This document shows, piece after piece, positions 3,831-31,767 of a stretch of DNA of 64,000 bases. Location of the stretch: sequence record OR544956. One strand, written 5' to 3'. This DNA is from Escherichia phage vB_EcoM_EP57. Under the pieces are notes generated by a model, which was given only the letters and a program-made list of their open reading frames with translations, was not told where the DNA came from and did not search any database. How positions within the stretch are numbered: position 1 is the stretch's first letter; the number at the start of each line of letters is the position of its first letter. Position numbers and translations under genes: made by a program.

Positions 3831-4250
3831 TTATAACGCTTCATAGATTGAGTAGATCCGGTTTGCCAGGTCATTACGAAAGCGGAATTTTTCATCACGT
3901 TTGATCATCAGATCCTTAAAACCACATTCTTTCAAGGCTTCATTAACTTTATGGCGGCAAACGTTCATATTATCTTGCGCGTCACCAATAAACTTATTAC
4001 TGTGATGCATTGCTTTGATCTCTTCCTCTAATACCAGGGCAACTACACGGATCGGATCAAGCTGATATGCGGTAACATCCATGCGGCATTGTAAACGGCT
4101 TTTAACATCGTTTACCGGATATACTGCAACCTCTTCCCCGTCAACGTTCACGATAACCAATTTACCATCGATTTCGAAGCCTTTGGCGGCGCTACCGTGA
4201 CAAAAAGCATTATCGAAGGAGTAAGCTGGATTATTTGATTTAATGTTCAT
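3831..4250 (-). CDS. hypothetical protein (139 aa)
   Basis: ORF, strand-consistent. Confidence 0.6.
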   Translation of the reverse strand: MNIKSNNPAYSFDNAFCHGSAAKGFEIDGKLVIVNVDGEEVAVYPVNDVKSRLQCRMDVTAYQLDPIRVVALVLEEEIKAMHHSNKFIGDAQDNMNVCRHKVNEALKECGFKDLMIKRDEKFRFRNDLANRIYSIYEAL

Positions 4251-4359
4251 GGTGTTGTCCTTTGTTTCGTTTCGTTGTTTGCTGCCAGTGAGTTAAATAT
4301 AATATAACGCCGATCCCCTGTCAATAGGGGATAGCGCATTATTTACATTTCTTTACGTT

Positions 4360-4380
4360 AAAGGGCGCTTGGTGCGCCCC
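4360..4380 (-). terminator. hairpin, possible terminator
   Basis: same GGGCGC..GCGCCC hairpin as 3798-3815, weaker U-tract. Confidence 0.4.
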
Positions 4381-4390
4381 TTGTATAATC

Positions 4391-4759
4391 TTACTTTGTG
4401 CGGTTGTGAACGTTATCGCGTTCAACCATCAGGGCAAGGCGGATCAGTTGATCAGTTGTATCGCGTAAATTGTCGGGCCATGTTTTACTGTTCCAGCTAT
4501 CCATGTTTGATTGTATATAGGTTTCAATGGCTTGATCCATATTATCAAACAAGTTTTCCTCCAGGCTCTCGGCTGTTTCACACTGGAAAGCATTAGCGAC
4601 ACTATTAATCAATAAGCAAGCCAGTAAATCAGCATTACGCCAATTTTTACGGATAGTTTCATCTGTCAGATAACCAACGAGATTAACCTTTGCGCCAGTG
4701 GTTGACGTTGCGATAACTTCTTGTGCTTTTTCAAGTGCTTTAATTGCTGATTTGCTCAT
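4391..4759 (-). CDS. hypothetical protein (122 aa)
   Basis: ORF, strand-consistent. Confidence 0.6.
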   Translation of the reverse strand: MSKSAIKALEKAQEVIATSTTGAKVNLVGYLTDETIRKNWRNADLLACLLINSVANAFQCETAESLEENLFDNMDQAIETYIQSNMDSWNSKTWPDNLRDTTDQLIRLALMVERDNVHNRTK

Positions 4760-4837
4760 TTTATTTTCCTCTTTGTGGGCTTGCTGTATTGCTCGCCCTA
4801 CGCAATAACTATAAGTTAACAGGAGCTATAAAGCAAG

Positions 4838-5071
4838 TTATTTTTTATAAAATTTTTCTGCTGTGATATTCTTCCCAGTAGGCTTAACCACTTGCAAGAT
4901 CTTATCATGTGCCGAACGTCCAAAAGAGTAAGATCCGTACACGGTAAACCAATAATCCCCGTTCGGTTGAACGGTTACGGCGGCGTACGGTGTACCTCTT
5001 TCATTATCCCCGATAAAGTGAGAAACATTACCGTTAACATTTGGTTTAGTGCTTTTAATTTGTTCGATCAT
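4838..5071 (-). CDS. hypothetical protein (77 aa)
   Basis: ORF, strand-consistent. Confidence 0.55.
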   Translation of the reverse strand: MIEQIKSTKPNVNGNVSHFIGDNERGTPYAAVTVQPNGDYWFTVYGSYSFGRSAHDKILQVVKPTGKNITAEKFYKK

Positions 5072-5090
5072 GATATGACTCCTAAATCAG

Positions 5091-5148
5091 GCGGGAAACA
5101 TTCCCGCCCTACGTGATAAATAATAATGTAAGCGTGATCCGGTGTCAA
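5091..5148 (-). promoter_or_regulatory. early promoter + 5' hairpin cassette (PeSL-like)
   Basis: minus-strand TTGACA, -10, then hairpin gcgggaaacattcccgcc just upstream of next ORF. Confidence 0.55.
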
Positions 5149-5324
5149 TAGGTAGGATTGTAAAGATTTGATAGTTTATTCCTTTGATGTTTTGTTATTT
5201 GATAGGCGTTAGTTATCAATATATAGCGGGGTCTTCCGGTGATTATCTTCCCCTGTTTCCAGGTGCCGCCCGTTCAATAAGCATAACAAAAAACAGGACA
5301 AAAGCAAGCCCTGTTTTGTAAAGA

Positions 5325-5516
5325 TTAGATCTCGTCACCTATATAATCAGATCTGTTCTTCTCTGTCATACGCTTAAACAATTCTTGCATATGGCTTATA
5401 GCTTGCAATGTGTCTTCTTCCAGACTTGAATCAACATAATCAGGATCATTCTTTACCTTGCTATGGTTGTGATAGCGCAACGCTGCTAATACCTTTCTAA
5501 CTTGTTCTGTATTCAT
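5325..5516 (-). CDS. hypothetical protein (63 aa)
   Basis: ORF. Confidence 0.45.
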   Translation of the reverse strand: MNTEQVRKVLAALRYHNHSKVKNDPDYVDSSLEEDTLQAISHMQELFKRMTEKNRSDYIGDEI

Positions 5517-5664
5517 TTTATTATTCCTTAAAACCAGGTGCCAACCGTTTCCAATAGGTCACTGACTACCAGGACAACATTGATCAGCACATATTCAACC
5601 ATGAAAGGGATAAGCGCCAGTGTCACTACTATGATCCCCATTGTGATGATTACCTTTCTCATGG

Positions 5665-5949
5665 TTAGCGGTTTACGTGGGCTTTACCGTTTACGGTCAT
5701 CGGTATGGCCTCAAGGTCTGGATCTTCCTTAAGGTCGCGTGAAAGCTCACCGCAGCGGATACCCTCGAATCCGTAGTACTCTGTTGTGCCGTCCTGGAAA
5801 GTTTTAGCGGCAAGGCATAGGCGATAATTAACACCGATCCGGTTTACCGCGTTGATATCGGTTAACGTGATGGATTTAGGCAACTCCTTAGCCATTACAG
5901 GCGCGTTAATACCAACAACCAGGGCAACTACTGCGATCATCTTTTTCAT
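5665..5949 (-). CDS. secreted hypothetical protein (94 aa)
   Basis: N-terminal signal peptide MKKMIAVVALVVGINAPVMA. Confidence 0.55.
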   Translation of the reverse strand: MKKMIAVVALVVGINAPVMAKELPKSITLTDINAVNRIGVNYRLCLAAKTFQDGTTEYYGFEGIRCGELSRDLKEDPDLEAIPMTVNGKAHVNR

Positions 5950-6003
5950 GTGTCTATCCTCTTCCTATTGCGTTTAATAGGGCGTTACCGCCCTGCTTAA
6001 AGT

Positions 6004-6240
6004 TTATTGATTGATGTTATAATGAAAGTTATTTTCTTCAATAGCTTTTAAAATAAAAGCTGTGATCGCTTTCGTGTCTACTTGTTCGAACGTATCAGAA
6101 TAGCACCAATAATAATCATCCCCTACTTTCGGCGGGTAAACCTGGACAAGGAGATCGCCACCTGGTTGATCTATAAGCTCAACATGCAAGCCGGATGATT
6201 CAGCGGTTTTAACGGCGGTTAATACTGTTGCAATACTCAT
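6004..6240 (-). CDS. hypothetical protein (78 aa)
   Basis: ORF. Confidence 0.55.
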   Translation of the reverse strand: MSIATVLTAVKTAESSGLHVELIDQPGGDLLVQVYPPKVGDDYYWCYSDTFEQVDTKAITAFILKAIEENNFHYNINQ

Positions 6241-6284
6241 AATCTTTTCCTTTCTGATGTGGGGCGTTGCCGCCCCTTTGTTGA

Positions 6285-6584
6285 TTAGATCGCTGTTTCC
6301 AGTAGTTCGGCTAACGTCTTACCGCCTGATAGTTGGTCTAACGTTTGCTCTTCTGGCAAGAAATTAGCTGATATTAACCCGACTTGATTCCCTTTGTGCC
6401 AATTAGCTTGACGGATGATTCCATCCTTTAAGGATTTTACCGCCATTGTGCAACCGTCGCCAAATGATTCATTTTTATGATCCATCACTTCATAAGCGCC
6501 CAGTTTGCTGCTGTTAGGCACCATTAACGCGAATACATCACCAACAACCAGTTTTTCTACGGTAACAATAGCGATAGTTTCCAT
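6285..6584 (-). CDS. hypothetical protein (99 aa)
   Basis: ORF; RBS GAGGAAA after hairpin. Confidence 0.6.
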   Translation of the reverse strand: METIAIVTVEKLVVGDVFALMVPNSSKLGAYEVMDHKNESFGDGCTMAVKSLKDGIIRQANWHKGNQVGLISANFLPEEQTLDQLSGGKTLAELLETAI

Positions 6585-6602
6585 TTTGTTTTCCTCATTA
6601 TC

Positions 6603-6659
6603 GGCGGCACCATTGCCGCCCTACGTGGTAAATAATACCATATTGGGGATCGGTGTCAA
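6603..6659 (-). promoter_or_regulatory. early promoter + 5' hairpin cassette (PeSL-like)
   Basis: TTGACA-N17-TATTAT then hairpin ggcggcaccattgccgcc. Confidence 0.6.
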
Positions 6660-6665
6660 TACTTT

Positions 6666-7052
6666 TTATTCAATATAAATCAAATTATCTTCACCGATGT
6701 AAGCCGACACGTTCGGCATAAACTTAGCTGCATTGGTTAGGCGGTTGGCGGTGTTAGTGGTGTATATTTCAGTGCGATCCCAAAAGCCTACGCCGTGACC
6801 GTTACGGGTAAAATGTAAATCATTCCCGATCTGGTTGGCTGTAGCGCCGTCGCTCATCGCCTCAGAGATAGCGGCATCATTGGCATCACAAAACGCCGCA
6901 ACGTCACGAATGATCCGTTGATGGGCTTGATCTGAAAATTCATAATCAGTCATGTCATCTATAAAATTACCTTCATGATCCCTTGCTGATTCAGCAAAAA
7001 TAAAGGCTTCTTTATAGCCGTTGATGATTTCAATAATGATTTCTGTTTTCAT
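6666..7052 (-). CDS. hypothetical protein (128 aa)
   Basis: ORF. Confidence 0.6.
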   Translation of the reverse strand: MKTEIIIEIINGYKEAFIFAESARDHEGNFIDDMTDYEFSDQAHQRIIRDVAAFCDANDAAISEAMSDGATANQIGNDLHFTRNGHGVGFWDRTEIYTTNTANRLTNAAKFMPNVSAYIGEDNLIYIE

Positions 7053-7273
7053 GCTGTACGCTCGACAATAATAATAGTTTGCGGGATCTCGTTTTCTACT
7101 ACTAACAAGGCTTTTTTCTGTGTAATAGATATTTTAACACGTTGTAAAGTAGCGGTGAAATCTTTCATTTCATTATGCGCGGACTTCGTGCAATGCCAGA
7201 TCTCAGGCTTACCAACTTGTAAGCCGCGTAAAAATTCCGTTTTGCCTGTTTTGTTCGTGATCATTTGTTTCAC
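7049..7273 (-). CDS. hypothetical protein (74 aa)
   Basis: ORF, ATGA coupling. Confidence 0.5.
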   Translation of the reverse strand: MKQMITNKTGKTEFLRGLQVGKPEIWHCTKSAHNEMKDFTATLQRVKISITQKKALLVVENEIPQTIIIVERTA

Positions 7274-7274
7274 C

Positions 7275-7379
7275 TTAACCGATACCGTGGGAAGATAGGA
7301 TCATGTTAGCCATAGTTGCAACCACTCCAACCGATAACGCCAGGCCAACCACTGCAACCGTGAAAATTTTCTCTAACAT
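7275..7379 (-). CDS. small hydrophobic peptide (34 aa)
   Basis: table ORF 7275..7478 trimmed to ATG after GAGGG RBS; longer form would translate the hairpin. Confidence 0.3.
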   Translation of the reverse strand: MLEKIFTVAVVGLALSVGVVATMANMILSSHGIG

Positions 7380-7398
7380 GATTCTACCCTCATTAGTA

Positions 7399-7459
7399 GG
7401 CGTTGCACCATTGCCCCGCCCTACGTAATACACTTTACTAGATAACAAATTATTGTCAA
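7399..7459 (-). promoter_or_regulatory. early promoter + 5' hairpin cassette (PeSL-like)
   Basis: TTGACA and imperfect hairpin ggcgttgcaccattgccccgcc. Confidence 0.45.
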
Positions 7460-7462
7460 GCT

Positions 7463-7600
7463 TTATTTTACTTCCCAAACGGAAAATTCGCTGCCTGTTG
7501 GGATCATCTTTTTAATCTTGTTTGCTGCCGCTACCAGGTCAACGGCTTGCACTGTAATAATATAACCAATTGTCGAGGCTGTTGCGTTGAAAGTTTTCAT
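7463..7600 (-). CDS. small hypothetical protein (45 aa)
   Basis: hand-found ORF with AAGGGTAATATA RBS. Confidence 0.35.
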   Translation of the reverse strand: MKTFNATASTIGYIITVQAVDLVAAANKIKKMIPTGSEFSVWEVK

Positions 7601-7620
7601 TATATTACCCTTTAATACAG

Positions 7621-7637
7621 GCGGGATTAATCCCGCC
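7621..7637 (-). promoter_or_regulatory. GC hairpin of the same family, no promoter
   Basis: ggcgggattaatcccgcc between two small ORFs. Confidence 0.4.
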
Positions 7638-7644
7638 TTGTTGA

Positions 7645-7815
7645 TTACTCTTCATCGTCGCCGTTATAGTATTCAATGCCGTTTTCATCGGTTACGGTGA
7701 TGTTAACGCCACCGATAGCAACACGATCACGGGCAAACGTCATAGCTTCATTTAAATCTTCAGACCAAAAAATATTGTGACCTTTGCGCGATACATAAAA
7801 CATAGTCGGGATCAT
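7645..7815 (-). CDS. hypothetical protein (56 aa)
   Basis: table ORF 7645..7899 trimmed to internal ATG downstream of hairpin. Confidence 0.45.
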   Translation of the reverse strand: MIPTMFYVSRKGHNIFWSEDLNEAMTFARDRVAIGGVNITVTDENGIEYYNGDDEE

Positions 7816-7836
7816 GATTTGTTTCTCTTCTGTTGT

Positions 7837-7899
7837 GAGCGGTGGACCATTCCGCCGCTCTATGTAATAAACTTTACTACGTTGTTTGCCTACTGTCAA
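7837..7899 (-). promoter_or_regulatory. early promoter + 5' hairpin cassette (PeSL-like)
   Basis: TTGACA then hairpin gagcggtggaccattccgccgctc. Confidence 0.55.
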
Positions 7900-7900
7900 A

Positions 7901-8185
7901 TTATTTTTTAATGTTTTGCCCTACAAAATTGATCACTTCCTTAAGCTGTTTCTCAGTCATGATCGTGCCTGGTAGTTCCTCTTTGATTTCTTCTGGTAAA
8001 TAGATATTACCGCGCCAGGTTAACAAACAACCGTTTTGATCTTCGCAGATAGAATAAGAAAACATCCACTCGCAATCATTTTCAAGCTCCCAAAAACACA
8101 AAAAGTCTTCTTTCCCTAAGTTTTCAACGGTTAAACATAATCCGCGACGTGCTGCATAATTAGTTAGGCTTTTTGTTATTTTCAT
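7901..8185 (-). CDS. hypothetical protein (94 aa)
   Basis: ORF trimmed to ATG downstream of hairpin. Confidence 0.55.
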   Translation of the reverse strand: MKITKSLTNYAARRGLCLTVENLGKEDFLCFWELENDCEWMFSYSICEDQNGCLLTWRGNIYLPEEIKEELPGTIMTEKQLKEVINFVGQNIKK

Positions 8186-8204
8186 GATTTTTCTCTCTTC
8201 TTGT

Positions 8205-8262
8205 GAGCGGCACCATTGCCGCCCTACAAGATACATATTATCAGACTAGGCGGACTTGTCAA
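8205..8262 (-). promoter_or_regulatory. early promoter + 5' hairpin cassette (PeSL-like)
   Basis: TTGACA-N16-TAATAT then hairpin gagcggcaccattgccgcc. Confidence 0.6.
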
Positions 8263-8263
8263 A

Positions 8264-8548
8264 CTATTTTTTCTTTTTCTTTGCTTCCAACCGTCTAAGG
8301 TTACGGCTTGACTTATTGCGCAAGGCGCTTAGATCGTCGTACCCTTTCCATGCTTGCATATCTTTCGGATTCATGTTATCCCCCTTATATTTGTTAGCCG
8401 GATTATATACCAGGACCGCGCCGCTTGCTTTCACGCTTTCCGCTTCATAGTTGCGCAGATCGTTTTCTGTAAGATTGAGCGCGATCACTTCCTCGACTTC
8501 AACGCCAGCGGCAAGGGCGATCTCTTTGATAATGTCTGTTATTTTCAT
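8264..8548 (-). CDS. hypothetical protein (94 aa)
   Basis: ORF trimmed to ATG with AAGGTG RBS. Confidence 0.55.
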   Translation of the reverse strand: MKITDIIKEIALAAGVEVEEVIALNLTENDLRNYEAESVKASGAVLVYNPANKYKGDNMNPKDMQAWKGYDDLSALRNKSSRNLRRLEAKKKKK

Positions 8549-8679
8549 GGTGTGCACCTTATAAGATGATTGATAAGATAGTGACAACGAAAGCGATTAT
8601 ACTGATGGCAAATGTCATCTTTTTTACCTTCGGATACTGCCGGATTCTCTACCGTGTATTCTACTGTGTACTTGCTCAT
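8545..8679 (-). CDS. small hypothetical protein (44 aa)
   Basis: hand-found ORF, GAGAGGA RBS, ATGA overlap with next gene. Confidence 0.3.
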   Translation of the reverse strand: MSKYTVEYTVENPAVSEGKKDDICHQYNRFRCHYLINHLIRCTP

Positions 8680-8702
8680 CGTGTAATCCTCTCGTTTGCT
8701 TT

Positions 8703-8759
8703 GGGAACTATTCCCGCCGCCCTATGAATTAAATATACACTATCTCAAAATGATTGCAA
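8703..8759 (-). promoter_or_regulatory. early promoter + 5' hairpin cassette (PeSL-like)
   Basis: TTGCAA-N16-TATATT then hairpin gggaactattccc. Confidence 0.5.
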
Positions 8760-8776
8760 GCCTTTTTCTAAATTAT

Positions 8777-9061
8777 TTATGCAGTAAACAAACCATCATT
8801 TACAACGGCGGCGATGATCTCCCGTGCCATTGATTCAGGGAAAGGGGCGCTATAGTCCTGGCTTGTCTCATCGGTATCAGTGATCCAATGATAAGCTAAC
8901 GAGTAAAAGCCTTTACTAACTGTTTTCAGTGAGATGATGATCACTCGGTCAAGCTTATTGGTGAATGTTGCCGTTAATGTGTTACCCTCCTGCGTCATGT
9001 TGGACAAGTAAGCGGGATCATTAATCAGGGAAAACATTAGCACGGTGTTAGCTTTACTCAT
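8777..9061 (-). CDS. hypothetical protein (94 aa)
   Basis: ORF trimmed to ATG downstream of hairpin. Confidence 0.55.
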   Translation of the reverse strand: MSKANTVLMFSLINDPAYLSNMTQEGNTLTATFTNKLDRVIIISLKTVSKGFYSLAYHWITDTDETSQDYSAPFPESMAREIIAAVVNDGLFTA

Positions 9062-9079
9062 GATTGCATCCTCAAAGGG

Positions 9080-9138
9080 GGCGCGGCACCATTGCCGCCC
9101 TACACGATAACTATAACACAATATAAAACAGGATCAAC
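9080..9138 (-). promoter_or_regulatory. early promoter + 5' hairpin cassette (PeSL-like)
   Basis: hairpin gcgcggcaccattgccgcc; weak -35. Confidence 0.45.
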
Positions 9139-9340
9139 CTTTATTTTTCCACGGTGTCAGCTTGTTAATCATTGGTGATAAATAGCGTTTACCAACGTAA
9201 AACAGCACGCCAACTGATGCAACGGCGGCGATCTCATGTAAGGAGGAAGGACGCGCGGTGTCATAGTAGGTACCGATAATAGCAATAGCGGCAACGGCTG
9301 CAACGTCGATAATGATTTTTTCTTGTTTTGCGGTGATCAT
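9134..9340 (-). CDS. small membrane protein (68 aa)
   Basis: hydrophobic segments. Confidence 0.5.
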   Translation of the reverse strand: MITAKQEKIIIDVAAVAAIAIIGTYYDTARPSSLHEIAAVASVGVLFYVGKRYLSPMINKLTPWKNKG

Positions 9341-9362
9341 AATATTTACCTTTTTGTATGGT

Positions 9363-9419
9363 GGGGAACTATTCCCCGCCTGATGTAATACAGTTTAACA
9401 GGTCCGGTTATGGTGTCAA
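9363..9419 (-). promoter_or_regulatory. early promoter + 5' hairpin cassette (PeSL-like)
   Basis: TTGACA then hairpin ggggaactattcccc. Confidence 0.55.
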
Positions 9420-9425
9420 CCACTT

Positions 9426-9611
9426 TTAAAGATATTTTATACTGATAACGTTTTCCGGTTTAACCTTGTTGCGATGTGCATCAACATAGATCAAACCATC
9501 GTCAGAAAAGCCCAGGATCACGCCCTGCGCAATAAAACCGTATTCGTCACGGTAACGCACGGCTATTTTTAATGTTGCGTTGTAGGCTGTTTTAAGCTCG
9601 TTTAAAGTCAT
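9426..9611 (-). CDS. hypothetical protein (61 aa)
   Basis: ORF. Confidence 0.5.
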   Translation of the reverse strand: MTLNELKTAYNATLKIAVRYRDEYGFIAQGVILGFSDDGLIYVDAHRNKVKPENVISIKYL

Positions 9612-9631
9612 TTTTGTTTATCCTCTACATG

Positions 9632-9659
9632 TAAAAAGAAAGGGCGCTTGGTGCGCCCT
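9632..9659 (-). terminator. rho-independent terminator
   Basis: GGGCGC-ACCAA-GCGCCC hairpin plus U-tract on minus strand. Confidence 0.55.
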
Positions 9660-9666
9660 TGTTATG

Positions 9667-9813
9667 TTAATCCTCTAAATCCATCCAATTATATTTGTCA
9701 CTCTTCCCGCGCTTTGTTTTATTGCGCTTGTCGCCTTTGCGGATCACTTCCTCATTCCAGGCCTTGCGGATCTTGGAAGATTGAATTTTTTCTGCGCGAT
9801 TAGATGTATTCAT
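9667..9813 (-). CDS. small basic protein (48 aa)
   Basis: hand-found ORF, AAAGAGGAAACAAA RBS. Confidence 0.35.
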   Translation of the reverse strand: MNTSNRAEKIQSSKIRKAWNEEVIRKGDKRNKTKRGKSDKYNWMDLED

Positions 9814-9831
9814 TTTGTTTCCTCTTTATAT

Positions 9832-9886
9832 GAGCGGCACCATTGCCGCTATATTATTAATTTAAACTGTTTTGTAAAATTGTCAA
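9832..9886 (-). promoter_or_regulatory. early promoter + 5' hairpin cassette (PeSL-like)
   Basis: TTGACA then hairpin gagcggcaccattgccgc. Confidence 0.55.
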
Positions 9887-9892
9887 GGTTTA

Positions 9893-10246
9893 TCATTCAT
9901 AAGAGCAAGCAAGGATCACTCCTGCAATATAAAGCCAATAATTTTCCCTTTCTCGTTGGATTTTATCATCGCTGCTATTCTCTTTAATGTATCCCCAGGA
10001 TGTTAACAAGCGATCCACTTCCCAATATTCGAAAGCGATATTAATGTCTGATGGCAAACCTTGTAACCATGATGCAAGTGCTTTAACAATACTATAATTA
10101 AAACGTGATTGGTTATCAGGGTACCAGTACTCGGAATTAAAACGGCGCATCAATTCCGCGATCTTCTCTTTTTCGGTTGTAATACCATAATCATTAAAAT
10201 CGATAGCGGCAAGGATGTACTCTTTAATTGCATTTTGTGCTTTCAT
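9893..10246 (-). CDS. hypothetical protein (117 aa)
   Basis: ORF. Confidence 0.6.
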   Translation of the reverse strand: MKAQNAIKEYILAAIDFNDYGITTEKEKIAELMRRFNSEYWYPDNQSRFNYSIVKALASWLQGLPSDINIAFEYWEVDRLLTSWGYIKENSSDDKIQRERENYWLYIAGVILACSYE

Positions 10247-10264
10247 GGTCTTTCTCTCTTTTTA

Positions 10265-10321
10265 GCGGGAACTATTCCCGCCCTATGTGTAACAGTTTAC
10301 TGAAAATTAGATCCGTGTCAA
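10265..10321 (-). promoter_or_regulatory. early promoter + 5' hairpin cassette (PeSL-like)
   Basis: TTGACA then hairpin gcgggaactattcccgc. Confidence 0.55.
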
Positions 10322-10324
10322 GCT

Positions 10325-10546
10325 TTATTTTGTTACTACCATTTGGTACCCTGTTTCAATGTTAGTAAATACTGTTATCCCGTCCTGGCGTTCACTCATT
10401 AGCATACAAGGCGCTAACATCCTTTCTACTGCCTTGCACTCGTTGTAAACGGCGGTTATATCTCCTGCTGCCTTGTCTTCTGTAGTAAATGTCTCATTTA
10501 CGTAAACTTGACCAGCGACAACGGTGACAATAGCGAAAGTGATCAT
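10325..10546 (-). CDS. hypothetical protein (73 aa)
   Basis: ORF. Confidence 0.5.
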   Translation of the reverse strand: MITFAIVTVVAGQVYVNETFTTEDKAAGDITAVYNECKAVERMLAPCMLMSERQDGITVFTNIETGYQMVVTK

Positions 10547-10619
10547 GATGTTTTTCTCTTTATGTGTTTCGATTAGTTGATATTACAGCAATTCGCAGAT
10601 TAGTTTTCAGCAATTCGTG

Positions 10620-10838
10620 CTATTTACTCATAACAGTATCGAAAACAAATTTTTCTTTGTTGTCAAAGCTCACGTATCCGATTCGACCACGCAAGCCGCG
10701 AGTAGTGCCGTATTCGTAACCGTCAAGACCTTTAACCTTCCAATCCACGCCCATTAAAACCGCATTATATTTCTGACCAACTACAAACGCGCCACCAGTT
10801 GATTCAATGCAAACAACTTTAATTTTACGGATTGCCAT
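10620..10838 (-). CDS. hypothetical protein (72 aa)
   Basis: ORF. Confidence 0.55.
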   Translation of the reverse strand: MAIRKIKVVCIESTGGAFVVGQKYNAVLMGVDWKVKGLDGYEYGTTRGLRGRIGYVSFDNKEKFVFDTVMSK

Positions 10839-10916
10839 TTTCTTTCTCTCTTTCTGGTGATTGGTTTCTCTTCTCTATAGCGCCCATTATAAGGCGCTAT
10901 AACGAAAAGTCAACGA

Positions 10917-11084
10917 TTATTTTTTAAGGCTTAAAGTACCTAACTTGTCAGCGTGACGCAGACCAGGGAAGATCCATTTGCCTGATTCATCTTTTACAGG
11001 GGCTTTAAGTGTAGCGCCCAGGTTGGCGGCGTTAACTTTACGTGCAACGTTGCGAGCGGCTTCACGGGTAGTAAAAGTAATCAT
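10917..11084 (-). CDS. small hypothetical protein (55 aa)
   Basis: hand-found ORF, GAAGAGGAAAACATC RBS. Confidence 0.35.
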   Translation of the reverse strand: MITFTTREAARNVARKVNAANLGATLKAPVKDESGKWIFPGLRHADKLGTLSLKK

Positions 11085-11108
11085 GATGTTTTCCTCTTCT
11101 CTTTGTTA

Positions 11109-11169
11109 GGCGGCGGACCATTCCCCGCCTTGATGTAATACAGTTTACTTTATTTTTGCAGTATTGCAA
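11109..11169 (-). promoter_or_regulatory. early promoter + 5' hairpin cassette (PeSL-like)
   Basis: TTGCAA then hairpin ggcggcggaccattccccgcc. Confidence 0.5.
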
Positions 11170-11174
11170 GCGTT

Positions 11175-11387
11175 TTATGAAATAATCGTCAAAGTAAAAT
11201 TGTAATCACCTGATTGATACAATACCTTGTCACCGAACGTTCCAACACGTTTAACATTGCAATATATACCCATAACACTTTTTACATCTTTGATATTCTT
11301 CACGCCTGTAATATCTTTATTAAAATGATCGTGATCAGAAAATAAAACTTGTTTTGCATTTTTCAACAAGGTGCAGATATTAACCAT
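11175..11387 (-). CDS. hypothetical protein (70 aa)
   Basis: ORF. Confidence 0.5.
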   Translation of the reverse strand: MVNICTLLKNAKQVLFSDHDHFNKDITGVKNIKDVKSVMGIYCNVKRVGTFGDKVLYQSGDYNFTLTIIS

Positions 11388-11410
11388 CGTGATAATCTCT
11401 CTTCTGTTGT

Positions 11411-11468
11411 GAGCGGCACCATTGCCGCCCTACGTAATACAGTTTACTCTTTTTCTTTCCCGTGTCAA
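11411..11468 (-). promoter_or_regulatory. early promoter + 5' hairpin cassette (PeSL-like)
   Basis: TTGACA then hairpin gagcggcaccattgccgcc. Confidence 0.6.
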
Positions 11469-11477
11469 CAATCTTTT

Positions 11478-11705
11478 TCAGATTAATTCATCCAGGCATA
11501 ACAGGCGATCAACGTTGAGATCGGTTAGGCTGATGGTTGGCACCTGGTAGGATTCGATGTACTCGACGCTTGCATATTCCCCAAAATTAGCAATAGCCCA
11601 CTTATTCAAGATCTCACATACATCATTAATCTTTTTGTTTGTTACAACTGCAATAACCTGGGAAGTGCCAACGGTGCCGGATACGCGAACAATATTGATA
11701 GCCAT
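11478..11705 (-). CDS. hypothetical protein (75 aa)
   Basis: ORF. Confidence 0.55.
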   Translation of the reverse strand: MAINIVRVSGTVGTSQVIAVVTNKKINDVCEILNKWAIANFGEYASVEYIESYQVPTISLTDLNVDRLLCLDELI

Positions 11706-11726
11706 AATCTTTAATCTCTCTGTTGT

Positions 11727-11788
11727 GAGCGGGAAACCACTTCCCGCCCTATGTGATACATCTTACACTAATTTTAAACGTTGTCAAC
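11727..11788 (-). promoter_or_regulatory. early promoter + 5' hairpin cassette (PeSL-like)
   Basis: TTGACA then hairpin gcgggaaaccacttcccgc. Confidence 0.55.
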
Positions 11789-11796
11789 TGTTTTTA

Positions 11797-12036
11797 TTAC
11801 ATTCCAACCATCGCGGCGCGGATCGCTGTAGTGCTATACTTGAAACCGTCCGGTGTTTTATCTTGTCCAGTTTGTTCCAGAAAAAGCATCATATCACGGG
11901 CAGCATCATTACGATTAGTATTAGCGGCGATAAATTCTTTCGCCAATCGATATAATGATTCGTCGTTATTAATCCAAAGGCTTACATTCCAATGAGTTTT
12001 GTTTTTGTGACCTAAGAACATTTTTGATTTAGCCAT
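11797..12036 (-). CDS. hypothetical protein (79 aa)
   Basis: ORF. Confidence 0.55.
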   Translation of the reverse strand: MAKSKMFLGHKNKTHWNVSLWINNDESLYRLAKEFIAANTNRNDAARDMMLFLEQTGQDKTPDGFKYSTTAIRAAMVGM

Positions 12037-12060
12037 GATATTAATCTCTTTTTCAGTGAG

Positions 12061-12119
12061 GCGGGAACTATTCCCGCTCTCTATGTAATACAGTTTACTC
12101 TTTTTATTCGTGCTGTCAA
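12061..12119 (-). promoter_or_regulatory. early promoter + 5' hairpin cassette (PeSL-like)
   Basis: TTGACA then hairpin gcgggaactattcccgc. Confidence 0.55.
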
Positions 12120-12125
12120 TGCTTT

Positions 12126-12491
12126 TTATAAATCTTTTTTACGTTTAACATCGCTTGCATGACTGTATACAGCGATCCCATTATCACGGCAAAAACGGGA
12201 AAGGTAGGCATAATTTGAAAACTCTTTACCTTCCAGGTTGATAACCTTGCTAAACTCTTCTAGGGCAACGGTATCAAAATGATCCCCATAGCCATATTGA
12301 AACGGAACGTTAACTACTTCGATCAGTTTACCGCCGATCTCAACATCAACCATCAAAGAGAAATAAGTATTACCATAAGACTTTTGAAACCAGCGACGGG
12401 CGCTAATATGTACCGCTTCAATGCTGGATAGTTCAATTTTAGCAGTGTTAGCCAGGGTAGCATAAGCAGAAACATTGATATTTTTAGCCAT
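12126..12491 (-). CDS. hypothetical protein (121 aa)
   Basis: ORF with E. coli-like codon choice. Confidence 0.6.
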   Translation of the reverse strand: MAKNINVSAYATLANTAKIELSSIEAVHISARRWFQKSYGNTYFSLMVDVEIGGKLIEVVNVPFQYGYGDHFDTVALEEFSKVINLEGKEFSNYAYLSRFCRDNGIAVYSHASDVKRKKDL

Positions 12492-12586
12492 AGTCTTTAA
12501 TCTCTTTTGATTAGTTAGGAGTATTCCCGATAAAAGTTATTATGCTTATACTATCACTCATTGTCAATAGTATAAGACTAAAACTT

Positions 12587-12766
12587 TTAACGATAATCAT
12601 TATAGGCTTTATTGACCTGGCGAATGTAACATTCGAAAGCAAGATCAATGTATTCGTATTCACGCACATAATCACCATAGGTCACTACATACATTTTTAA
12701 AGTTTCCTCATAAGCCAGGAGGATCGAATCTAAACCTATAATCTCAGTTTTTGCAATGATAGCCAT
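12587..12766 (-). CDS. small hypothetical protein (59 aa)
   Basis: hand-found ORF with RBS. Confidence 0.35.
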   Translation of the reverse strand: MAIIAKTEIIGLDSILLAYEETLKMYVVTYGDYVREYEYIDLAFECYIRQVNKAYNDYR

Positions 12767-12786
12767 GATGTTAACCTTTTATTGTT

Positions 12787-12843
12787 GGCGGCACCATTGC
12801 CGCCCTACGTGATAAACTATACCAGAATTTTAAACAGTGTCAA
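12787..12843 (-). promoter_or_regulatory. early promoter + 5' hairpin cassette (PeSL-like)
   Basis: TTGACA then hairpin ggcggcaccattgccgcc. Confidence 0.6.
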
Positions 12844-12849
12844 CCGTTT

Positions 12850-13212
12850 TTATTCGTAAATTTTACCGCTTTCGGCCCATACCATAACGCGGCGCATACT
12901 ATCCCAAGTGTTCTGATCCAAGTTTAAGCCGTGCAACTCTTCGGTACTTCCCAGACCAGGTACCGCTTTGTTGTAAGTTGCATATAAGCGCCCTTGATAC
13001 TCATACGCCAGAGTAAGATCCGTTTGAATCATCTTTTTAAGCATAGCATTAAGCATCATATTAGCGGCATGTTGATCACGTTTTAGCGGTAACATATCAA
13101 TAAGGGCGCGATAAGCTGAAACATGAATATCAACCGTTTCACGTGGTAAATTTTTCATATCATCACGGAAAGATACCAGATTAAACATGATAGTATTGAT
13201 TTGCTTGCTCAT
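12850..13212 (-). CDS. hypothetical protein (120 aa)
   Basis: ORF trimmed to ATG downstream of hairpin. Confidence 0.55.
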   Translation of the reverse strand: MSKQINTIMFNLVSFRDDMKNLPRETVDIHVSAYRALIDMLPLKRDQHAANMMLNAMLKKMIQTDLTLAYEYQGRLYATYNKAVPGLGSTEELHGLNLDQNTWDSMRRVMVWAESGKIYE

Positions 13213-13234
13213 TGTGTTACCCTTTTTTTGTTTT

Positions 13235-13295
13235 GGCGGGGAAGTATTCCGCCGCCCTATGTGATACATCTTATCAGATTAAAAAACGTTGTCAA
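13235..13295 (-). promoter_or_regulatory. early promoter + 5' hairpin cassette (PeSL-like)
   Basis: TTGACA-N16-TAAGAT then hairpin ggcggggaagtattccgccgcc. Confidence 0.6.
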
Positions 13296-13429
13296 GAATA
13301 TTTTTTAGAAAATAATAACCGCTACTACAACCCAAAATGGAACGGCTAGAATGATAGCGTTAATCGTTCCAACCGTCAAGCTATTTTCTTTATTAATCAT
13401 TGTAAGCCTCTTGCATAATTTCACTATTA

Positions 13430-13486
13430 GCGGCACCATTGCCGCCCTACGTGGTAAATATTATGCCAGTGGCGGCGATATGTCAA
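13430..13486 (-). promoter_or_regulatory. early promoter + 5' hairpin cassette (PeSL-like)
   Basis: TTGACA then hairpin gcggcaccattgccgcc. Confidence 0.55.
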
Positions 13487-14049
13487 AGACTATTTTCAAA
13501 GTTTTCTAGTGCGATCCTTTTTTCTTCCTCTGTTGGCTGATAATCAGGAAAAGCATCAACACACAACAACGGCGGGATCTCTTCGTACTCTTCCTCTTCC
13601 GTTGTCTCCTCGTCTTCCTCCTGGGCTATGGCTGCAATTTTGGCTAATTTTCTTTCAGCTTGAATCAATTTACCATCAAGTACGTTTTTTGCCATGTTGT
13701 AAGCGGTCCAGGTGATGCGCTTACTTTCCAATGCTTCATCAAGCGCCGCTATCTTGCTGGGGTATTCATCCAGGACACGAAAAGCCGGATCAACTTTGTA
13801 CAAAGGATTATCTTTCGCGCCATCGCTCGCATCTTCCGCACTGGATAAATCAGCGTTACCATTTGCCAGCCAACCAGGGCGCACATAACGCGCTTTTACG
13901 TTGCCGTTACTACGTGCTAATCTGTTACCTATTTGCTCACCGCTATACCCCGTGGATTCATCGATAAGATGATCGGGAATGATGCGCGGATCATCTGCTT
14001 CATGTTTTACCCAAGACTGGATCACATATTCGCGGCCCATATTAACCAC
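13483..14049 (-). CDS. hypothetical protein with acidic tract (188 aa)
   Basis: ORF; EEDEETTEEEEYEE stretch. Confidence 0.6.
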   Translation of the reverse strand: MVNMGREYVIQSWVKHEADDPRIIPDHLIDESTGYSGEQIGNRLARSNGNVKARYVRPGWLANGNADLSSAEDASDGAKDNPLYKVDPAFRVLDEYPSKIAALDEALESKRITWTAYNMAKNVLDGKLIQAERKLAKIAAIAQEEDEETTEEEEYEEIPPLLCVDAFPDYQPTEEEKRIALENFENSL

Positions 14050-14299
14050 CTTTTTTCAACAATTGACATACTTTAAAAAGACTTGCTGAATCCTTGCAAG
14101 GGTAGAAAGATGTACGATAATCACGTACGCCAACCTTGCGGATCTCGATGTTTTCGCATGTTGTTTGATCAAAGATATTTATTTCATCACGCCCCCTTAT
14201 ATAAACATAGTGGGGATGTATTAACGCATATTTTGCTAATCTGTAAAAAGCGTTATCTTTGAACGCGATCACGTGACCTTTTAATTTGATGTAAAACAT
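14042..14299 (-). CDS. hypothetical protein (85 aa)
   Basis: ORF. Confidence 0.5.
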   Translation of the reverse strand: MFYIKLKGHVIAFKDNAFYRLAKYALIHPHYVYIRGRDEINIFDQTTCENIEIRKVGVRDYRTSFYPCKDSASLFKVCQLLKKGG

Positions 14300-14326
14300 T
14301 CTACCACCTTACAAATAGCGGGAACT

Positions 14327-14372
14327 ATTCCCGCTTTATGTAACATATTAACAAATTATTCGTTAATGTCAA
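14327..14372 (-). promoter_or_regulatory. early promoter + 5' hairpin cassette (PeSL-like)
   Basis: TTGACA then hairpin gcgggaactattcccgc. Confidence 0.55.
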
Positions 14373-14375
14373 GCC

Positions 14376-14648
14376 TTAAAGCAAAAACGCTACATCTTGC
14401 GCTTTTAGTGTAGTATCAACCATTTTCGGGCTTTTATAATCAACAAAGCGCGCGGTTTTTTCAATAGCGAAACCGAGATAATCTTGCTTGTTGAAATTAC
14501 ATTCTTTCTTAAATGTTTCCCGTGCAATAGCGATCGCTGCGTCCAGGGATAAACGCCCGTCAATATCGATATTAGCGAAAGATCCGCCACCGCTCATAGG
14601 TTTACCAGTTGTGCCAGCTACGATCATTGTTGCGCTATATGATGCCAT
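14376..14648 (-). CDS. hypothetical protein (90 aa)
   Basis: ORF; preferred over overlapping 14405..14590. Confidence 0.5.
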   Translation of the reverse strand: MASYSATMIVAGTTGKPMSGGGSFANIDIDGRLSLDAAIAIARETFKKECNFNKQDYLGFAIEKTARFVDYKSPKMVDTTLKAQDVAFLL

Positions 14649-14671
14649 GATGATAATCTCTCTTCTGTTAC

Positions 14672-14732
14672 GAGCGGGAAACCACTTCCCGCCCTATGTG
14701 ATACATCTTATCAGGTTGTTGTTTGTTGTCAA
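14672..14732 (-). promoter_or_regulatory. early promoter + 5' hairpin cassette (PeSL-like)
   Basis: TTGACA then hairpin gcgggaaaccacttcccgc. Confidence 0.55.
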
Positions 14733-14738
14733 TAGTTT

Positions 14739-14936
14739 TTATTCTATTCCTGCGATTTGATTAACGCGCTTGCATTTTGTAGCGTGCTGGTCTTCTGTAA
14801 TGACTCCCATTTCTAACAGGGAATCAATGAAAGATAAAACCGTTTCATGATCATCCTGGGGGTGACTGAACTCAGTAAAACCGTTTACCACTACGTTGAT
14901 TTGTCCAGCTTTCGCCACAATGTGCAATGTTGCCAT
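14739..14936 (-). CDS. hypothetical protein (65 aa)
   Basis: ORF trimmed to ATG downstream of hairpin. Confidence 0.5.
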   Translation of the reverse strand: MATLHIVAKAGQINVVVNGFTEFSHPQDDHETVLSFIDSLLEMGVITEDQHATKCKRVNQIAGIE

Positions 14937-14954
14937 GATCTTAACTCCAAATAG

Positions 14955-15013
14955 TGAGCGGCACCATTGCCGCGCTACGTGGTAAATATTATGCCGCCGC
15001 CTGGCGAACGTCA
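14955..15013 (-). promoter_or_regulatory. early promoter + 5' hairpin cassette (PeSL-like)
   Basis: -35-like TTGACG then hairpin gcggcaccattgccgcg. Confidence 0.5.
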
Positions 15014-15122
15014 ACCATTTTTCAATCTTTTTTATTTTCTTTTTGCTTGCTATATATAAAGAAAAGGGCTATTATCTTTCTACCGCGCCAACCAGGGCGC
15101 ACAACAAAGAAAGGGCGATACC

Positions 15123-15326
15123 ATGACAACTACATTACACCTTATGCACTCATTGGGCTGGCAAGGCGGCACGGTGCACCAGGTAGCAAGCGCAACGGGC
15201 TTAAAGGTTGAAACCGTTCTCAACCTGGGCGATCATAAAGTGGAAGAGATAGAACATTTTGATCCGTTGGCGGCGGGGAAAGCAAGATACCGCCAGGGGC
15301 GCGGGGCGATATGTATTTTTGGTTAG
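15123..15326 (+). CDS. hypothetical protein (67 aa)
   Basis: isolated plus-strand ORF in inter-block region. Confidence 0.3.
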   Translation: MTTTLHLMHSLGWQGGTVHQVASATGLKVETVLNLGDHKVEEIEHFDPLAAGKARYRQGRGAICIFG

Positions 15327-15360
15327 GTGTCCTATCCTGGCAAGAAAACAAAAAATAATC

Positions 15361-15389
15361 TTGACAAGCCCAGGGATCGGGCTTATACT
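15361..15389 (+). promoter_or_regulatory. sigma70-type promoter with no downstream ORF
   Basis: TTGACA-N17-TATACT; reads into ORF-free region. Confidence 0.5.
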
Positions 15390-15662
15390 GTTTTACATAC
15401 AGAAGAGGAAGCGCCACCCCACGGCGTAAAGGCGGGGCTAACATACCAGGGGCACTGGTTGGAAGGTTGATCGCCGGTAGCTCGTCTAAAATAAATTTGT
15501 AAAGAAATGTAAAGATAAAAATAATCGCTTGCTTTTTATTCTTATTGTATGGCGAGGGGACACGGGAGCGCGAGACAAACACCGCCCCTGCGCGTCATTC
15601 TCTAAATGAGATTGATTCTTATTTAATAAAGTAAATGATAATCATTCTCATTTAAAAATTTT

Positions 15663-15850
15663 TGTAAACTTTAAATTTTGCTTTTGTACTTTCATTTTTG
15701 TAAAAGCAAAAAAACTTTAAATACTGTGGGCGCGCAAAATTTTTAAAATTTTCCTTGACTTTTGAGTTTTGTTTTGTATCTAACATTTTAAGATAATTTT
15801 CCTAAACTTTAAATTTTGCTTTTCAACTTTCACTTTTGTAAATTCTTAAA
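15663..15850. repeat. two about 45-bp AT-rich direct repeats about 145 bp apart
   Basis: aaactttaaattttgcttttgtactttcatttttgtaaa vs aaactttaaattttgcttttcaactttcacttttgtaaa. Confidence 0.6.
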
Positions 15851-16188
15851 AAGTTTAAATAATTTGAGGAATTTTTGAGATACTCTCTACGGTGCTGTAG
15901 GAGCCTTATTTCTGTGCTACAAAGTGACACCTTTGTTCTAAAAATGAAAAAAGTTAAAATATCACAAATATCGTCTTTGCGGTATTTTGTCTGGGAAAAG
16001 TATTTCGATCAGTTTATTATGATATTTGCCTAAAAGATTCTGCCCTTTCCAGGTGGCAGGGTTTAGCACCCCTGGTTCATACATCCCCATTCCAATTCCG
16101 TAAACCTTATCGTAGGGGCTTGCTTCAACAAACGTTTTGTATTGGTAAAGGTGTAAGTCTGCATACAAATCTGGATTCTGTACATATT

Positions 16189-31691: not shown

Positions 31692-31750
31692 TTGACATAG
31701 TTCTTAAAAAGAGTAAGATGTATCACATGAAGCGGGGAATAGTTCCCCGC
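31692..31750 (+). promoter_or_regulatory. early promoter + 5' hairpin cassette (PeSL-like), plus strand
   Basis: TTGACA-N17-TAAGAT, gtatcacat, hairpin gcggggaatagttccccgc. Confidence 0.6.
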
Positions 31751-31767
31751 AAAGAGAGGAGAAAAGA

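Follow-up and report, generated by a model that had tools for sequence, protein, structure and literature searches.

A repeated promoter-hairpin cassette in the early-gene array of Escherichia phage vB_EcoM_EP57 and related large coliphages

INTRODUCTION

Why should nearly every small early gene of a phage be preceded by the same promoter, and that promoter be followed by the same kind of GC-rich hairpin? The question is raised by a 64,000-nucleotide (nt) stretch of Escherichia phage vB_EcoM_EP57 (record OR544956; the whole stretch is called the window here), in which an initial annotation had pointed to promoter-plus-hairpin cassettes ahead of small early open reading frames (ORFs) and had likened them to the promoter early stem-loop (PeSL) elements of T4-type phages. 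A PeSL is a composite of early promoter and stem-loop that is repeated in the hyperplastic regions of T4-like genomes; its stem-loop has terminator or attenuator activity and can stand in any of five places, most commonly within the promoter, and the motif mediates indels, replacements, and the formation of mini-circles (Arbiol et al. 2010, PMC2839356; Comeau et al. 2014, PMC4122927). A rare subclass of PeSLs has the stem-loop downstream of the -10 element.

The phage from which the window derives belongs to Phapecoctavirus, as a phAPEC8/tuntematon-like myovirus of the Stephanstirmvirinae, a group with genomes of ~150 kb. Its early region (5000-15100) is 99% identical to that of Escherichia phage tuntematon and 93-97% identical to those of other Phapecoctavirus genomes. 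DNA polymerase I is annotated in tuntematon, the closest complete genome, in agreement with the earlier placement of this DNA in a non-T4 lineage with a family-A polymerase.

RESULTS

A promoter-hairpin module is repeated through the early-gene array

From 15014 down to 4776, nearly every intergenic gap contains a module of ~100 bp, always on the minus strand and in one orientation. It begins with an A-rich stretch that overlaps the stop codon of the upstream gene, continues with TTGACA, a 16-17 nt spacer, and TAnnnT (commonly with an upstream TG), which together form a near-consensus sigma-70 promoter, then passes through a block reading (G/T)TAT(C/T)AC(A/G)TAGG into a GC hairpin, and ends with an A/C- and purine-rich leader that carries a Shine-Dalgarno (SD) sequence ahead of the ATG. 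When the minus strand was read for ORFs, the array came to ~35 genes in 10 kb, of which 21 are preceded by a promoter-hairpin cassette, 3 by a promoter without the standard hairpin, and 4 by a hairpin without a promoter, while 7 are translationally coupled to the gene upstream.

Copies were collected with two covariance models. The first, R1, was built from 16 copies of the same geometry (seed alignment A2) and searched with filters off; the second, R2, was built from 130 copies. R1 found 20 minus-strand copies between 5088 and 15014, with E values from 1e-16 to 0.07, together with a plus-strand copy at 31692-31751 and a diverged copy at 4776-4836, making 22 model-detected copies in total, and R2 recovered the same set. 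Both the reading of the minus strand and the two models therefore bear out the cassettes that the initial annotation had described. Its count of 21 plus 1 was right within one: the models give 20 plus the copy upstream of terC, they add the copy at 4776-4836 that had not been listed, and two further array promoters are best treated as variants, one at 12567 with a degenerate hairpin and one at 10913 with an inverted repeat straddling the -10. The copies and variants are the following.

14955..15014, minus strand: cassette from -35 to hairpin, first of the leftward array, stem GCGGCA/TGCCGC (R1 58.6 bits, E 1.5e-12)
14671..14732, minus strand: cassette, stem GCGGGAA/TTCCCGC, loop GTGGT (R1 40.1 bits, R2 54.8 bits)
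14315..14372, minus strand: cassette, stem AGCGGGAA/TTCCCGCT (R1 29.4 bits, R2 49 bits)
13427..13486, minus strand: cassette, stem GCGGCA/TGCCGC (R1 59.4 bits)
13233..13295, minus strand: cassette, imperfect stem GGCGGCGGAA/TTCCCCGCC (R1 42 bits)
12785..12843, minus strand: cassette, stem GGCGGCA/TGCCGCC (R1 66.5 bits)
12510..12567, minus strand: variant, near-consensus TTGACA-17-CATAAT with degenerate hairpin GGGAATACTCC (fold z -0.4; missed by R1 and R2)
12057..12119, minus strand: cassette, stem GCGGGAA/TTCCCGC (R1 36.2 bits)
11726..11787, minus strand: cassette, stem GCGGGAA/TTCCCGC, loop GTGGT; chimeric hairpin at the orthologous site of phAPEC8 (R1 match)
11410..11468, minus strand: cassette, top-scoring copy, stem GCGGCA/TGCCGC (R1 75 bits, E 1e-16)
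11110..11169, minus strand: cassette with TTGCAA as -35, bulged stem GGCGGGGA/TCCGCCGCC (R1 26.4 bits, R2 50.4 bits)
10878..10913, minus strand: variant, TTGACT-16-TATAAT, inverted repeat TAGCGCC/GGCGCTA straddling the -10, the classic PeSL geometry (sequence reading)
10262..10321, minus strand: cassette, stem GGCGGGAA/TTCCCGCT (R1 38.1 bits)
9831..9886, minus strand: cassette without the CAYRTAGG block, stem AGCGGCA/TGCCGCT (R1 42.7 bits)
9362..9419, minus strand: cassette, stem GGCGGGGAA/TTCCCCACC with one C.A mismatch (R1 22.4 bits, R2 48.8 bits)
9080..9137, minus strand: cassette with TTGATC as -35, stem GCGGCA/TGCCGC (R1 54 bits)
8700..8759, minus strand: cassette with TTGCAA as -35, partly decayed stem GGGAA/TTCCC (R1 16.7 bits, E 0.066; R2 26.2 bits, E 0.001)
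8204..8262, minus strand: cassette, stem GCGGCA/TGCCGC (R1 66.2 bits)
7836..7899, minus strand: cassette, stem GCGGCGGA/TCCACCGC with one C.A mismatch (R1 44 bits)
7397..7459, minus strand: cassette, internal-loop stem GGCGGGGCA/TGCAACGCC; PsgM04F breakpoint at 7424 (R1 match, alignment)
6601..6659, minus strand: cassette, composite of two SKA64/PsgM04F cassettes that flank an extra gene (R1 match, alignment)
5088..5148, minus strand: cassette, stem GGGCGGGAA/TTCCCGCCT; promoter half fused to the 4836 hairpin in SKA64/PsgM04F (R1 match, alignment)
4776..4836, minus strand: diverged cassette beyond the range first described, hairpin GGGCGAGCAATACAGCAAGCCC (R1 20 bits, E 0.009; fold z -5.0)
31692..31751, plus strand: isolated cassette upstream of terC, stem GCGGGGAA/TTCCCCGC (R1 33.8 bits; R2 53.4 bits, E 4e-10)

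Among promoter-like sites scoring at least 10/12 in 4000-16000, 21 of 24 lie on the minus strand of the array. Chance does not explain the cassette family, as motif counts and fold energies both indicate. The block motif AYRTAGRGCGG (at most one mismatch) occurs 19 times, compared with 2.6 +/- 1.7 in shuffles. In 20 of 23 cassettes, the predicted +1 to +32 segment has a folding energy of -11 to -16 kcal/mol; the mean z is -3.0 against dinucleotide shuffles, whereas 35 other promoter-like sites in the window average -3.3 kcal/mol and have no such hairpin. In the window plus 84 kb of tuntematon (66-150 kb), R2 gave only a few weak matches (E 0.06 to 0.9) beyond the array and the terC copy, and the family is therefore restricted to that copy and a single array of 10 kb. 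No RNA family of Rfam 15 matched anywhere in the window at the gathering score.

The same design is present in phi92 (Justusliebigvirus), in W70 and rV5 (Vequintavirinae), in Salmonella phage PVP-SE1 (Seunavirus), and in the 348-kb jumbo phage 121Q (Asteriusvirus).

Stems change in sequence and keep their pairing

Stems are 6-10 bp long, somewhat longer than the 5-7 bp first reported, and their sequences vary by lineage (GCGGCA/TGCCGC, GCCGCA/TGCGGC, GCGGGAA/TTCCCGC, GGGGAGAA/TTCTCCCC, GGTGGGGAA/TTCCCCACT, and GGGGCAA/TTGCCCC); PVP-SE1 has GCCGGGG/CCCCGGC stems of the same design. A set of 109 distinct copies, drawn from the window and nine related loci, has standard pairs in 98.2% of its alignment cells and double changes in five of the seven pairs. 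None of 500 column shuffles attained the observed pairing values, and sliding the 3' partner by 1-3 columns as a control lowered pairing to 9-64%. When only the 51 distinct copies from phi92, W70, rV5, and 121Q were considered, 96.9% of cells were paired, six of seven pairs were doubly changed, and the covariation score was 0.323, compared with 0.114 +/- 0.012. RNAalifold independently predicts the same helix. The compensatory changes that the initial annotation had proposed are thus found in the window with its related loci and in the set of four other phages, and pairing exceeds that of shuffled controls; judged from these alignments, the stem is under selection for structure.

Pair counts were made on the seed alignment A2 and the model-based alignments A3 and A4; a first MAFFT alignment of all copies (A1), in which the 3' arms were misaligned because stem lengths differ, was excluded. 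A gap-free count of symmetric mismatches on 56 distinct hairpins proved too noisy owing to bulges. Mismatches of the G.U type outnumbered those of the A.C type 39:5 and 12:7 in the model alignments, an excess that fits a role as sense-strand RNA and is weakly informative, because most of the G.U pairs fall at a single terminal position.

The hairpin sits at a fixed distance from the promoter

Geometry was measured in all lineages with a detector blind to stem sequence. The distance from the end of the -10 to the first paired base is 9-12 nt in the window (22 of 22 model-detected copies) and also in phi92, W70, rV5, and 121Q, and the distance from the end of the hairpin to the start codon is 15-28 nt in the same five, despite their differing stems. 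Promoter geometry alone would place the hairpin at the 5' end of the mRNA: if transcription starts at the conserved purine of YAC-R-T, 7-8 nt past the -10, the hairpin would begin at about +3 to +6 of the RNA. The literature on Phapecoctavirus, rV5, PVP-SE1, and relatives yielded no mapped 5' ends or transcriptome for these phages.

No cassette hairpin is followed by a T-run on the coding strand, as the initial annotation had said in setting these hairpins apart from terminators. By a criterion of hairpin plus T-run, the coding strand of the array has only two intrinsic terminators, at 9660-9640 and 5317-5290, neither of them a cassette, and we rejected the cassette hairpins as candidate intrinsic terminators on this sequence criterion.

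Crossovers between relatives fall inside cassettes

Alignment of the window to five Phapecoctavirus early regions revealed hybrid cassettes. The gene at 4838-5071 is missing from SKA64 and PsgM04F, which have in its place one hybrid cassette that starts as the 5148 promoter, ends as the 4836 hairpin, and switches from one to the other inside CGTAGGGCG, a stretch common to both. Conversely, an additional small gene in SKA64 and PsgM04F occupies the place of the window's single 6659 cassette, and that cassette combines the promoter half of their upstream copy with the untranslated region (UTR) half of their downstream copy, the switch lying inside the identical GTAGGGCGGCAATGGTGCCGC. In phAPEC8, a chimeric hairpin, GCGGCGGAATGG-TTTCCCGC, precedes one orthologous gene and a different hairpin variant precedes another, and two other genes substitute for four genes and four cassettes.

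Across the region, 14 of 28 distinct synteny breakpoints lie in cassette footprints, which cover 21% of it (binomial p = 6e-4). The remaining breakpoints join ATG to ATG or UTR to UTR, or are gene-exact with no cassette involved, and cassettes are therefore a frequent route of exchange and not the sole one. The synteny comparison proposed in the initial annotation thus uncovered hybrid cassettes and cassette-bounded gene indels among relatives; hybrids with crossovers in block or hairpin, together with the breakpoint count, show cassette-mediated gene shuffling, and in these alignments genes have been gained, lost, and swapped by recombination within cassettes.

Early genes are shared with distant phage groups

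Exchange is not limited to close relatives. Between 131.6 and 147.9 kb, the genome of 121Q carries many single small early genes in common with rV5-like and phi92-like phages, at 66-89% nucleotide identity and in shuffled order; several such genes are common to 121Q, W70, phi92, and the window, at 66-84% identity and again differently ordered. In the window, the stretches homologous to 121Q start in a hairpin, in a UTR, or at a start codon, and they stop no more than a few bases from a stop codon. Each of the shared genes in 121Q is preceded by a cassette of the 121Q type, TTGCAA-16-TATAAT...ACATCAAGGGGAG, whereas the window has TTGACA-16-TAAGAT or TAAACT, and a promoter flavor peculiar to each genome is what would be expected if crossovers fall in the hairpin or UTR, so that the promoter half already there is retained.

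Across lineages the structure is conserved, and the sequences of block and loop are not. The early array of PVP-SE1 (118.8-127.3 kb) mixes three geometries, in which the stem-loop follows the -10, lies in the spacer, or covers the -10, and one of its copies has a block, GCGTAGGGCGGCAATGGTGCC, identical to the window's. The hybrid cassettes and the homology with 121Q support a common pool of genes that are bounded by cassettes and pass between phages through short-homology recombination. The independent lineage proposed in the initial annotation understates this spread, given that the same design and shared genes occur in Vequintavirinae and 121Q. One could go further and imagine block plus hairpin as an actively read universal adaptor that moves early genes among Stephanstirmvirinae, Vequintavirinae including PVP-SE1, and Asteriusvirus, helped by a structure-specific factor in an integron-like manner or serving as a tag for a shared RNA-binding regulator, a proposal to which we give little credence.

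An isolated copy precedes terC

As first noted, one cassette stands upstream of terC. This plus-strand copy at 31692 lies 17 nt upstream of a TerC-family ORF, and its promoter type would suggest early timing for terC. In the window terC is split into two ORFs of 115 and 212 amino acids, both with TerC Pfam matches (31768-32686), because it lacks, at 32078/32079, 56 nt that Phapecoctavirus TSP7_1, otherwise 100% identical, has. The gene is intact in tuntematon (975 nt); the 56-nt gap could be a real deletion that leaves a pseudogene, or it could be an assembly error.

Other elements in and around the array

Besides the cassettes, the array and its borders contain terminators, hairpins without promoters, and a promoter of a different type.

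9640..9660, minus strand: promoter-less hairpin plus T-run, an intrinsic terminator by the criterion used, bidirectional, 28 nt upstream of the next start codon
7619..7638, minus strand: promoter-less intergenic GC hairpin GGCGGGATTAATCCCGCC, 20 nt upstream of a start codon (sequence reading)
6261..6276, minus strand: promoter-less intergenic GC hairpin GGGGCGGCAACGCCCC, 20 nt upstream of a start codon (sequence reading)
5980..5993, minus strand: promoter-less intergenic GC hairpin GGGCGGTAACGCCC (sequence reading)
5290..5317, minus strand: intrinsic terminator within the array, by the same criterion
4296..4335, minus strand: promoter with RB49-type PeSL strings, TTGACAGGGGATCGG, and CGAAACGAAACAAAGGA downstream at 4258-4274 (comparison with RB49)

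A further promoter-less GC hairpin lies at 4360-4380; intergenic hairpins of this sort stand 20-30 nt upstream of start codons. On the plus strand, T-rich tails follow the hairpins at 7619-7638 and 6261-6276, which would stop antisense transcription.

Direct reading of RB49 intergenic regions placed the stem-loop between -35 and -10 or over the -10, where it is untranscribed from its own promoter. Homology of the cassettes to RB49 PeSLs was rejected, as only the promoter consensus is held in common, with the single exception of 4296-4335. That promoter lies upstream of ORF 3831-4250, its two strings are identical to ones in RB49 PeSLs, and it has an inverted repeat, ATCCCCT/AGGGGAT, over its -35; together with 4258-4274 it looks like a remnant of a T4-type PeSL inside a non-T4 phage. 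RB49-like geometry or strings are limited in the window to two odd elements, this one and the variant at 10878-10913. Owing to a UTR-to-UTR junction, phAPEC8, ECO340P2, SKA64, and PsgM04F lack the gene at 10620-10838, which the 10878-10913 promoter would drive.

Just beyond the array, the plus strand at 15047-15100 has a divergent rightward promoter, TTGCTA-17-TATTAT, with its own hairpin, GCGCCAACCAGGGCGC, 9 nt later, and this element is conserved in phi92 (~9416). The design of a hairpin directly after a promoter is therefore not limited to the repeat family. Farther on, ~15600-15900 is non-coding and contains direct repeats, TTTACA...CAAAATTTAAAGTTTA, at ~15842 and ~15704; tuntematon has an annotated repeat_region at the equivalent place, and the repeats could be an origin or another cis element.

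Near-identical Phapecoctavirus or Vequintavirus early regions also occur in records named as phages of Campylobacter, Klebsiella, Acinetobacter, Pseudomonas, and Listeria. The host labels of these records seem doubtful, and possibly reflect contaminating coliphages or mislabeling.

DISCUSSION

The early region of this phage carries a repeat family whose copies conserve structure, hold a fixed geometry, and contain crossovers between relatives. What the hairpin does is a separate matter. The interpretation we favor, with somewhat more confidence than doubt, is that the host sigma-70 RNA polymerase reads each cassette as a self-contained module for early expression, that the cassette's 5' hairpin caps and insulates the mRNA, and that the repeats serve as a substrate for recombination. 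An A-tract resembling an UP element and the near-consensus -35 and -10 would provide promoter activity early in infection, and transcription would start at the conserved purine of YAC-R-TAGG, about 7-8 nt past the -10. The transcript would then form its 6-10 bp GC hairpin from about 3-6 nt in, followed by an unstructured leader with the SD sequence and the start codon. The most likely role of the hairpin would be to cap and insulate the 5' end of each early mRNA, where it would slow the 5'-end-dependent decay initiated by RppH and RNase E and keep the context of the ribosome-binding site (RBS) constant whichever gene follows; in transcripts reading through from upstream, it would act as an intercistronic barrier to 3' exonucleases. 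With ~22 near-identical copies of ~100 bp in one orientation, the modules also serve as homology patches, and recombination in block or hairpin deletes, inserts, or swaps single early genes, within the lineage and with other coliphages. Gene shuffling may then be a by-product of the module or a trait selected along with it.

The capping role has precedents in the host. The 5'-terminal stem-loops of ompA and papA stabilize E. coli mRNA (Emory, Bouvet, and Belasco, cited in PMC3997798), RppH and RNase E need single-stranded 5' ends, and 5' structure stabilizes E. coli mRNA (reviewed in PMC3997798). Like those stabilizers, the cassette would present a short stable hairpin a few nucleotides from the predicted 5' end and then an accessible RBS; unlike them, it belongs to a multicopy family fused to a promoter, has a function that we infer, and is predicted to leave 3-5 unpaired nt before the stem. 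The barrier role recalls a second group of host elements. Intercistronic stabilizers such as repetitive extragenic palindromic (REP) sequences are GC hairpins without U-tracts that lie between co-transcribed genes and can block 3' exonucleases. Cassette hairpins share the GC stem and the lack of a U-tract, and the array has promoter-less copies as well, whereas REP sequences are host chromosomal repeats with a consensus and partners of their own, and cassette hairpins are coupled to promoters at a fixed offset.

Several points count against the capping module. The start site is deduced from the promoter consensus, and the 3-5 unpaired nt ahead of the stem may admit RppH or RNase E, so that protection could be partial. 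Four promoter-less intergenic hairpins lie at the same distance upstream of start codons as the cassette hairpins do, and some stem-loops of PVP-SE1 and RB49 lie inside the promoter, so a role tied to a transcript's own 5' end would not be universal. The copies are kin by duplication and gene conversion, which means that covariation cells are not independent events, and the structure of the model guided the fitting of alignments A3 and A4. As for recombination, roughly half of the breakpoints follow gene boundaries exactly and involve no cassette, and viable breakpoints must be intergenic, which by itself would enrich cassettes for them.

Some of these points are also the strength of the main competing explanation, in which the hairpin is an attenuator or 3'-end element of the PeSL type that attenuates or terminates read-through, or blocks 3' exonucleases, and so balances ~22 strong co-oriented promoters, its position after its own promoter being incidental. 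The PeSL papers report terminator or attenuator activity for their stem-loops, promoter-less hairpins in the array are equally far from start codons, and stem-loops lie in the spacer or over the -10 in PVP-SE1 and RB49 and once in the window, at 10878-10913. Two observations make us regard this explanation as unlikely, although it is the best of the alternatives: intrinsic termination by E. coli RNA polymerase is unexpected at hairpins that no T-run follows, and an offset of 9-12 nt from the -10, held across lineages with unrelated stems, would be needless for an element that acts on read-through.

The comparison with PeSLs themselves is accordingly close in some respects. Both are repeated intergenic composites of an AT-rich region, a near-consensus sigma-70 early promoter, a GC stem-loop, and an SD sequence; both cluster among small ORFans in a hyperplastic region (~22 copies here), bound indels and replacements between close relatives with crossovers inside the motif, including the loop, and have stem sequences specific to the lineage. 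Differences lie in the host genome, which is Stephanstirmvirinae and not T4-like Straboviridae, in the lack of sequence homology past the promoter consensus, and in the stem, which in contrast to that of RB49 follows the -10 by 9-12 nt, would be inside the transcript, and has no T-run. The likeness drawn in the initial annotation therefore holds for architecture, clustering, and recombination and does not extend to membership, since the stem comes after the -10 and not inside the promoter. On present sequence comparisons we would file the family as a PeSL-like variant, not as a PeSL member.

A second alternative makes the block and hairpin (+1 to ~+25) a recognition site, in DNA or RNA, for a phage or host protein, such as an operator for early shut-off, the target of a RegA-like repressor, or a nut/put-like site. 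Within Phapecoctavirus, conservation of the unpaired block and of the loop (AAT-R-GT) goes beyond what folding demands, and the element is positioned where a repressor would block RNA polymerase. Set against this, the sequences of block and loop vary across lineages where the structure is kept, several stem variants exist within one genome, cassettes occur in three taxonomically separate phage groups, which favors host machinery, and the window has no Rfam family at the gathering score. Symmetrical stem variants coexisting in one genome are evidence against an operator for a dimeric protein, and for that reason and the lack of sequence conservation across lineages we gave an operator less weight; a recognition site of any of these kinds is quite unlikely.

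The hairpin might instead act as DNA, as a cruciform or a single-stranded attC-like structure targeted by a dedicated or structure-specific enzyme, with any role as RNA secondary. The PeSL authors, who drew analogies to integron attC cassettes and to phage morons, raised the same idea of a recombination signal, and here crossovers do fall within block and hairpin and single-gene units have been exchanged between unrelated phages with boundaries at cassettes. Like attC cassettes and morons, these are single genes bounded by structured or regulatory sites, mobile as units and served by a promoter that the system supplies. Nevertheless, the crossover zones are the longest identical stretches (9-21 nt), as in ordinary homologous recombination, many breakpoints lie outside hairpins, no recombinase is evident in the array, and, unlike attC sites, the cassettes come with no integrase and no evidence of site-specific chemistry, their crossovers fitting short-homology recombination. 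A dedicated recombination signal is correspondingly improbable.

Promoters of the N4 virion polymerase are small DNA hairpins. A phage-specific promoter of this sort, in which block plus hairpin would be read by a non-host RNA polymerase, can be set aside as very improbable: although the phAPEC8 record (NC_020079) puts its "PHIRE" promoters exactly on the 20-nt block, PHIRE reports only 20-mers that are over-represented, a near-consensus sigma-70 promoter precedes the element in every case, the element is common to unrelated phage groups, and no RNA polymerase gene is annotated in tuntematon between 16.5 and 150 kb, as judged by reading its annotation and not by profile search.

That record labels the sigma-70 half of the repeat "host dependent promoter (MEME)" and block plus hairpin "putative promoter determined with PHIRE," so the repeat was noticed in 2012 with its hairpin unrecognized. 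The "PHIRE promoters" of phAPEC8 are probably mis-annotated hairpin halves of sigma-70 cassettes. For rV5, 33 sigma-70 promoters are listed in the published paper, the main text of which is silent on hairpins. In the literature on Phapecoctavirus, phAPEC8, rV5, PVP-SE1, Vequintavirus, and Stephanstirmvirinae, setting aside the phAPEC8 genome announcement and one 2026 preprint, we found no description of structure, covariation, or cassette shuffling in these phages.

Recognizing the cassettes corrects the "PHIRE promoter" annotation of phAPEC8 in the databases and offers a compact unit of promoter, 5' hairpin, and RBS that is a candidate mRNA-stabilizing or insulating part and may be reusable in phage engineering or synthetic expression cassettes. 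More broadly, it extends the PeSL idea, that regulatory cassettes drive the modular shuffling of genes, past T4-like phages and brings in three or more further groups of large enterobacterial myoviruses. Phage therapy makes use of several of them, and the comparisons show these groups drawing on a common pool of single-gene early modules.

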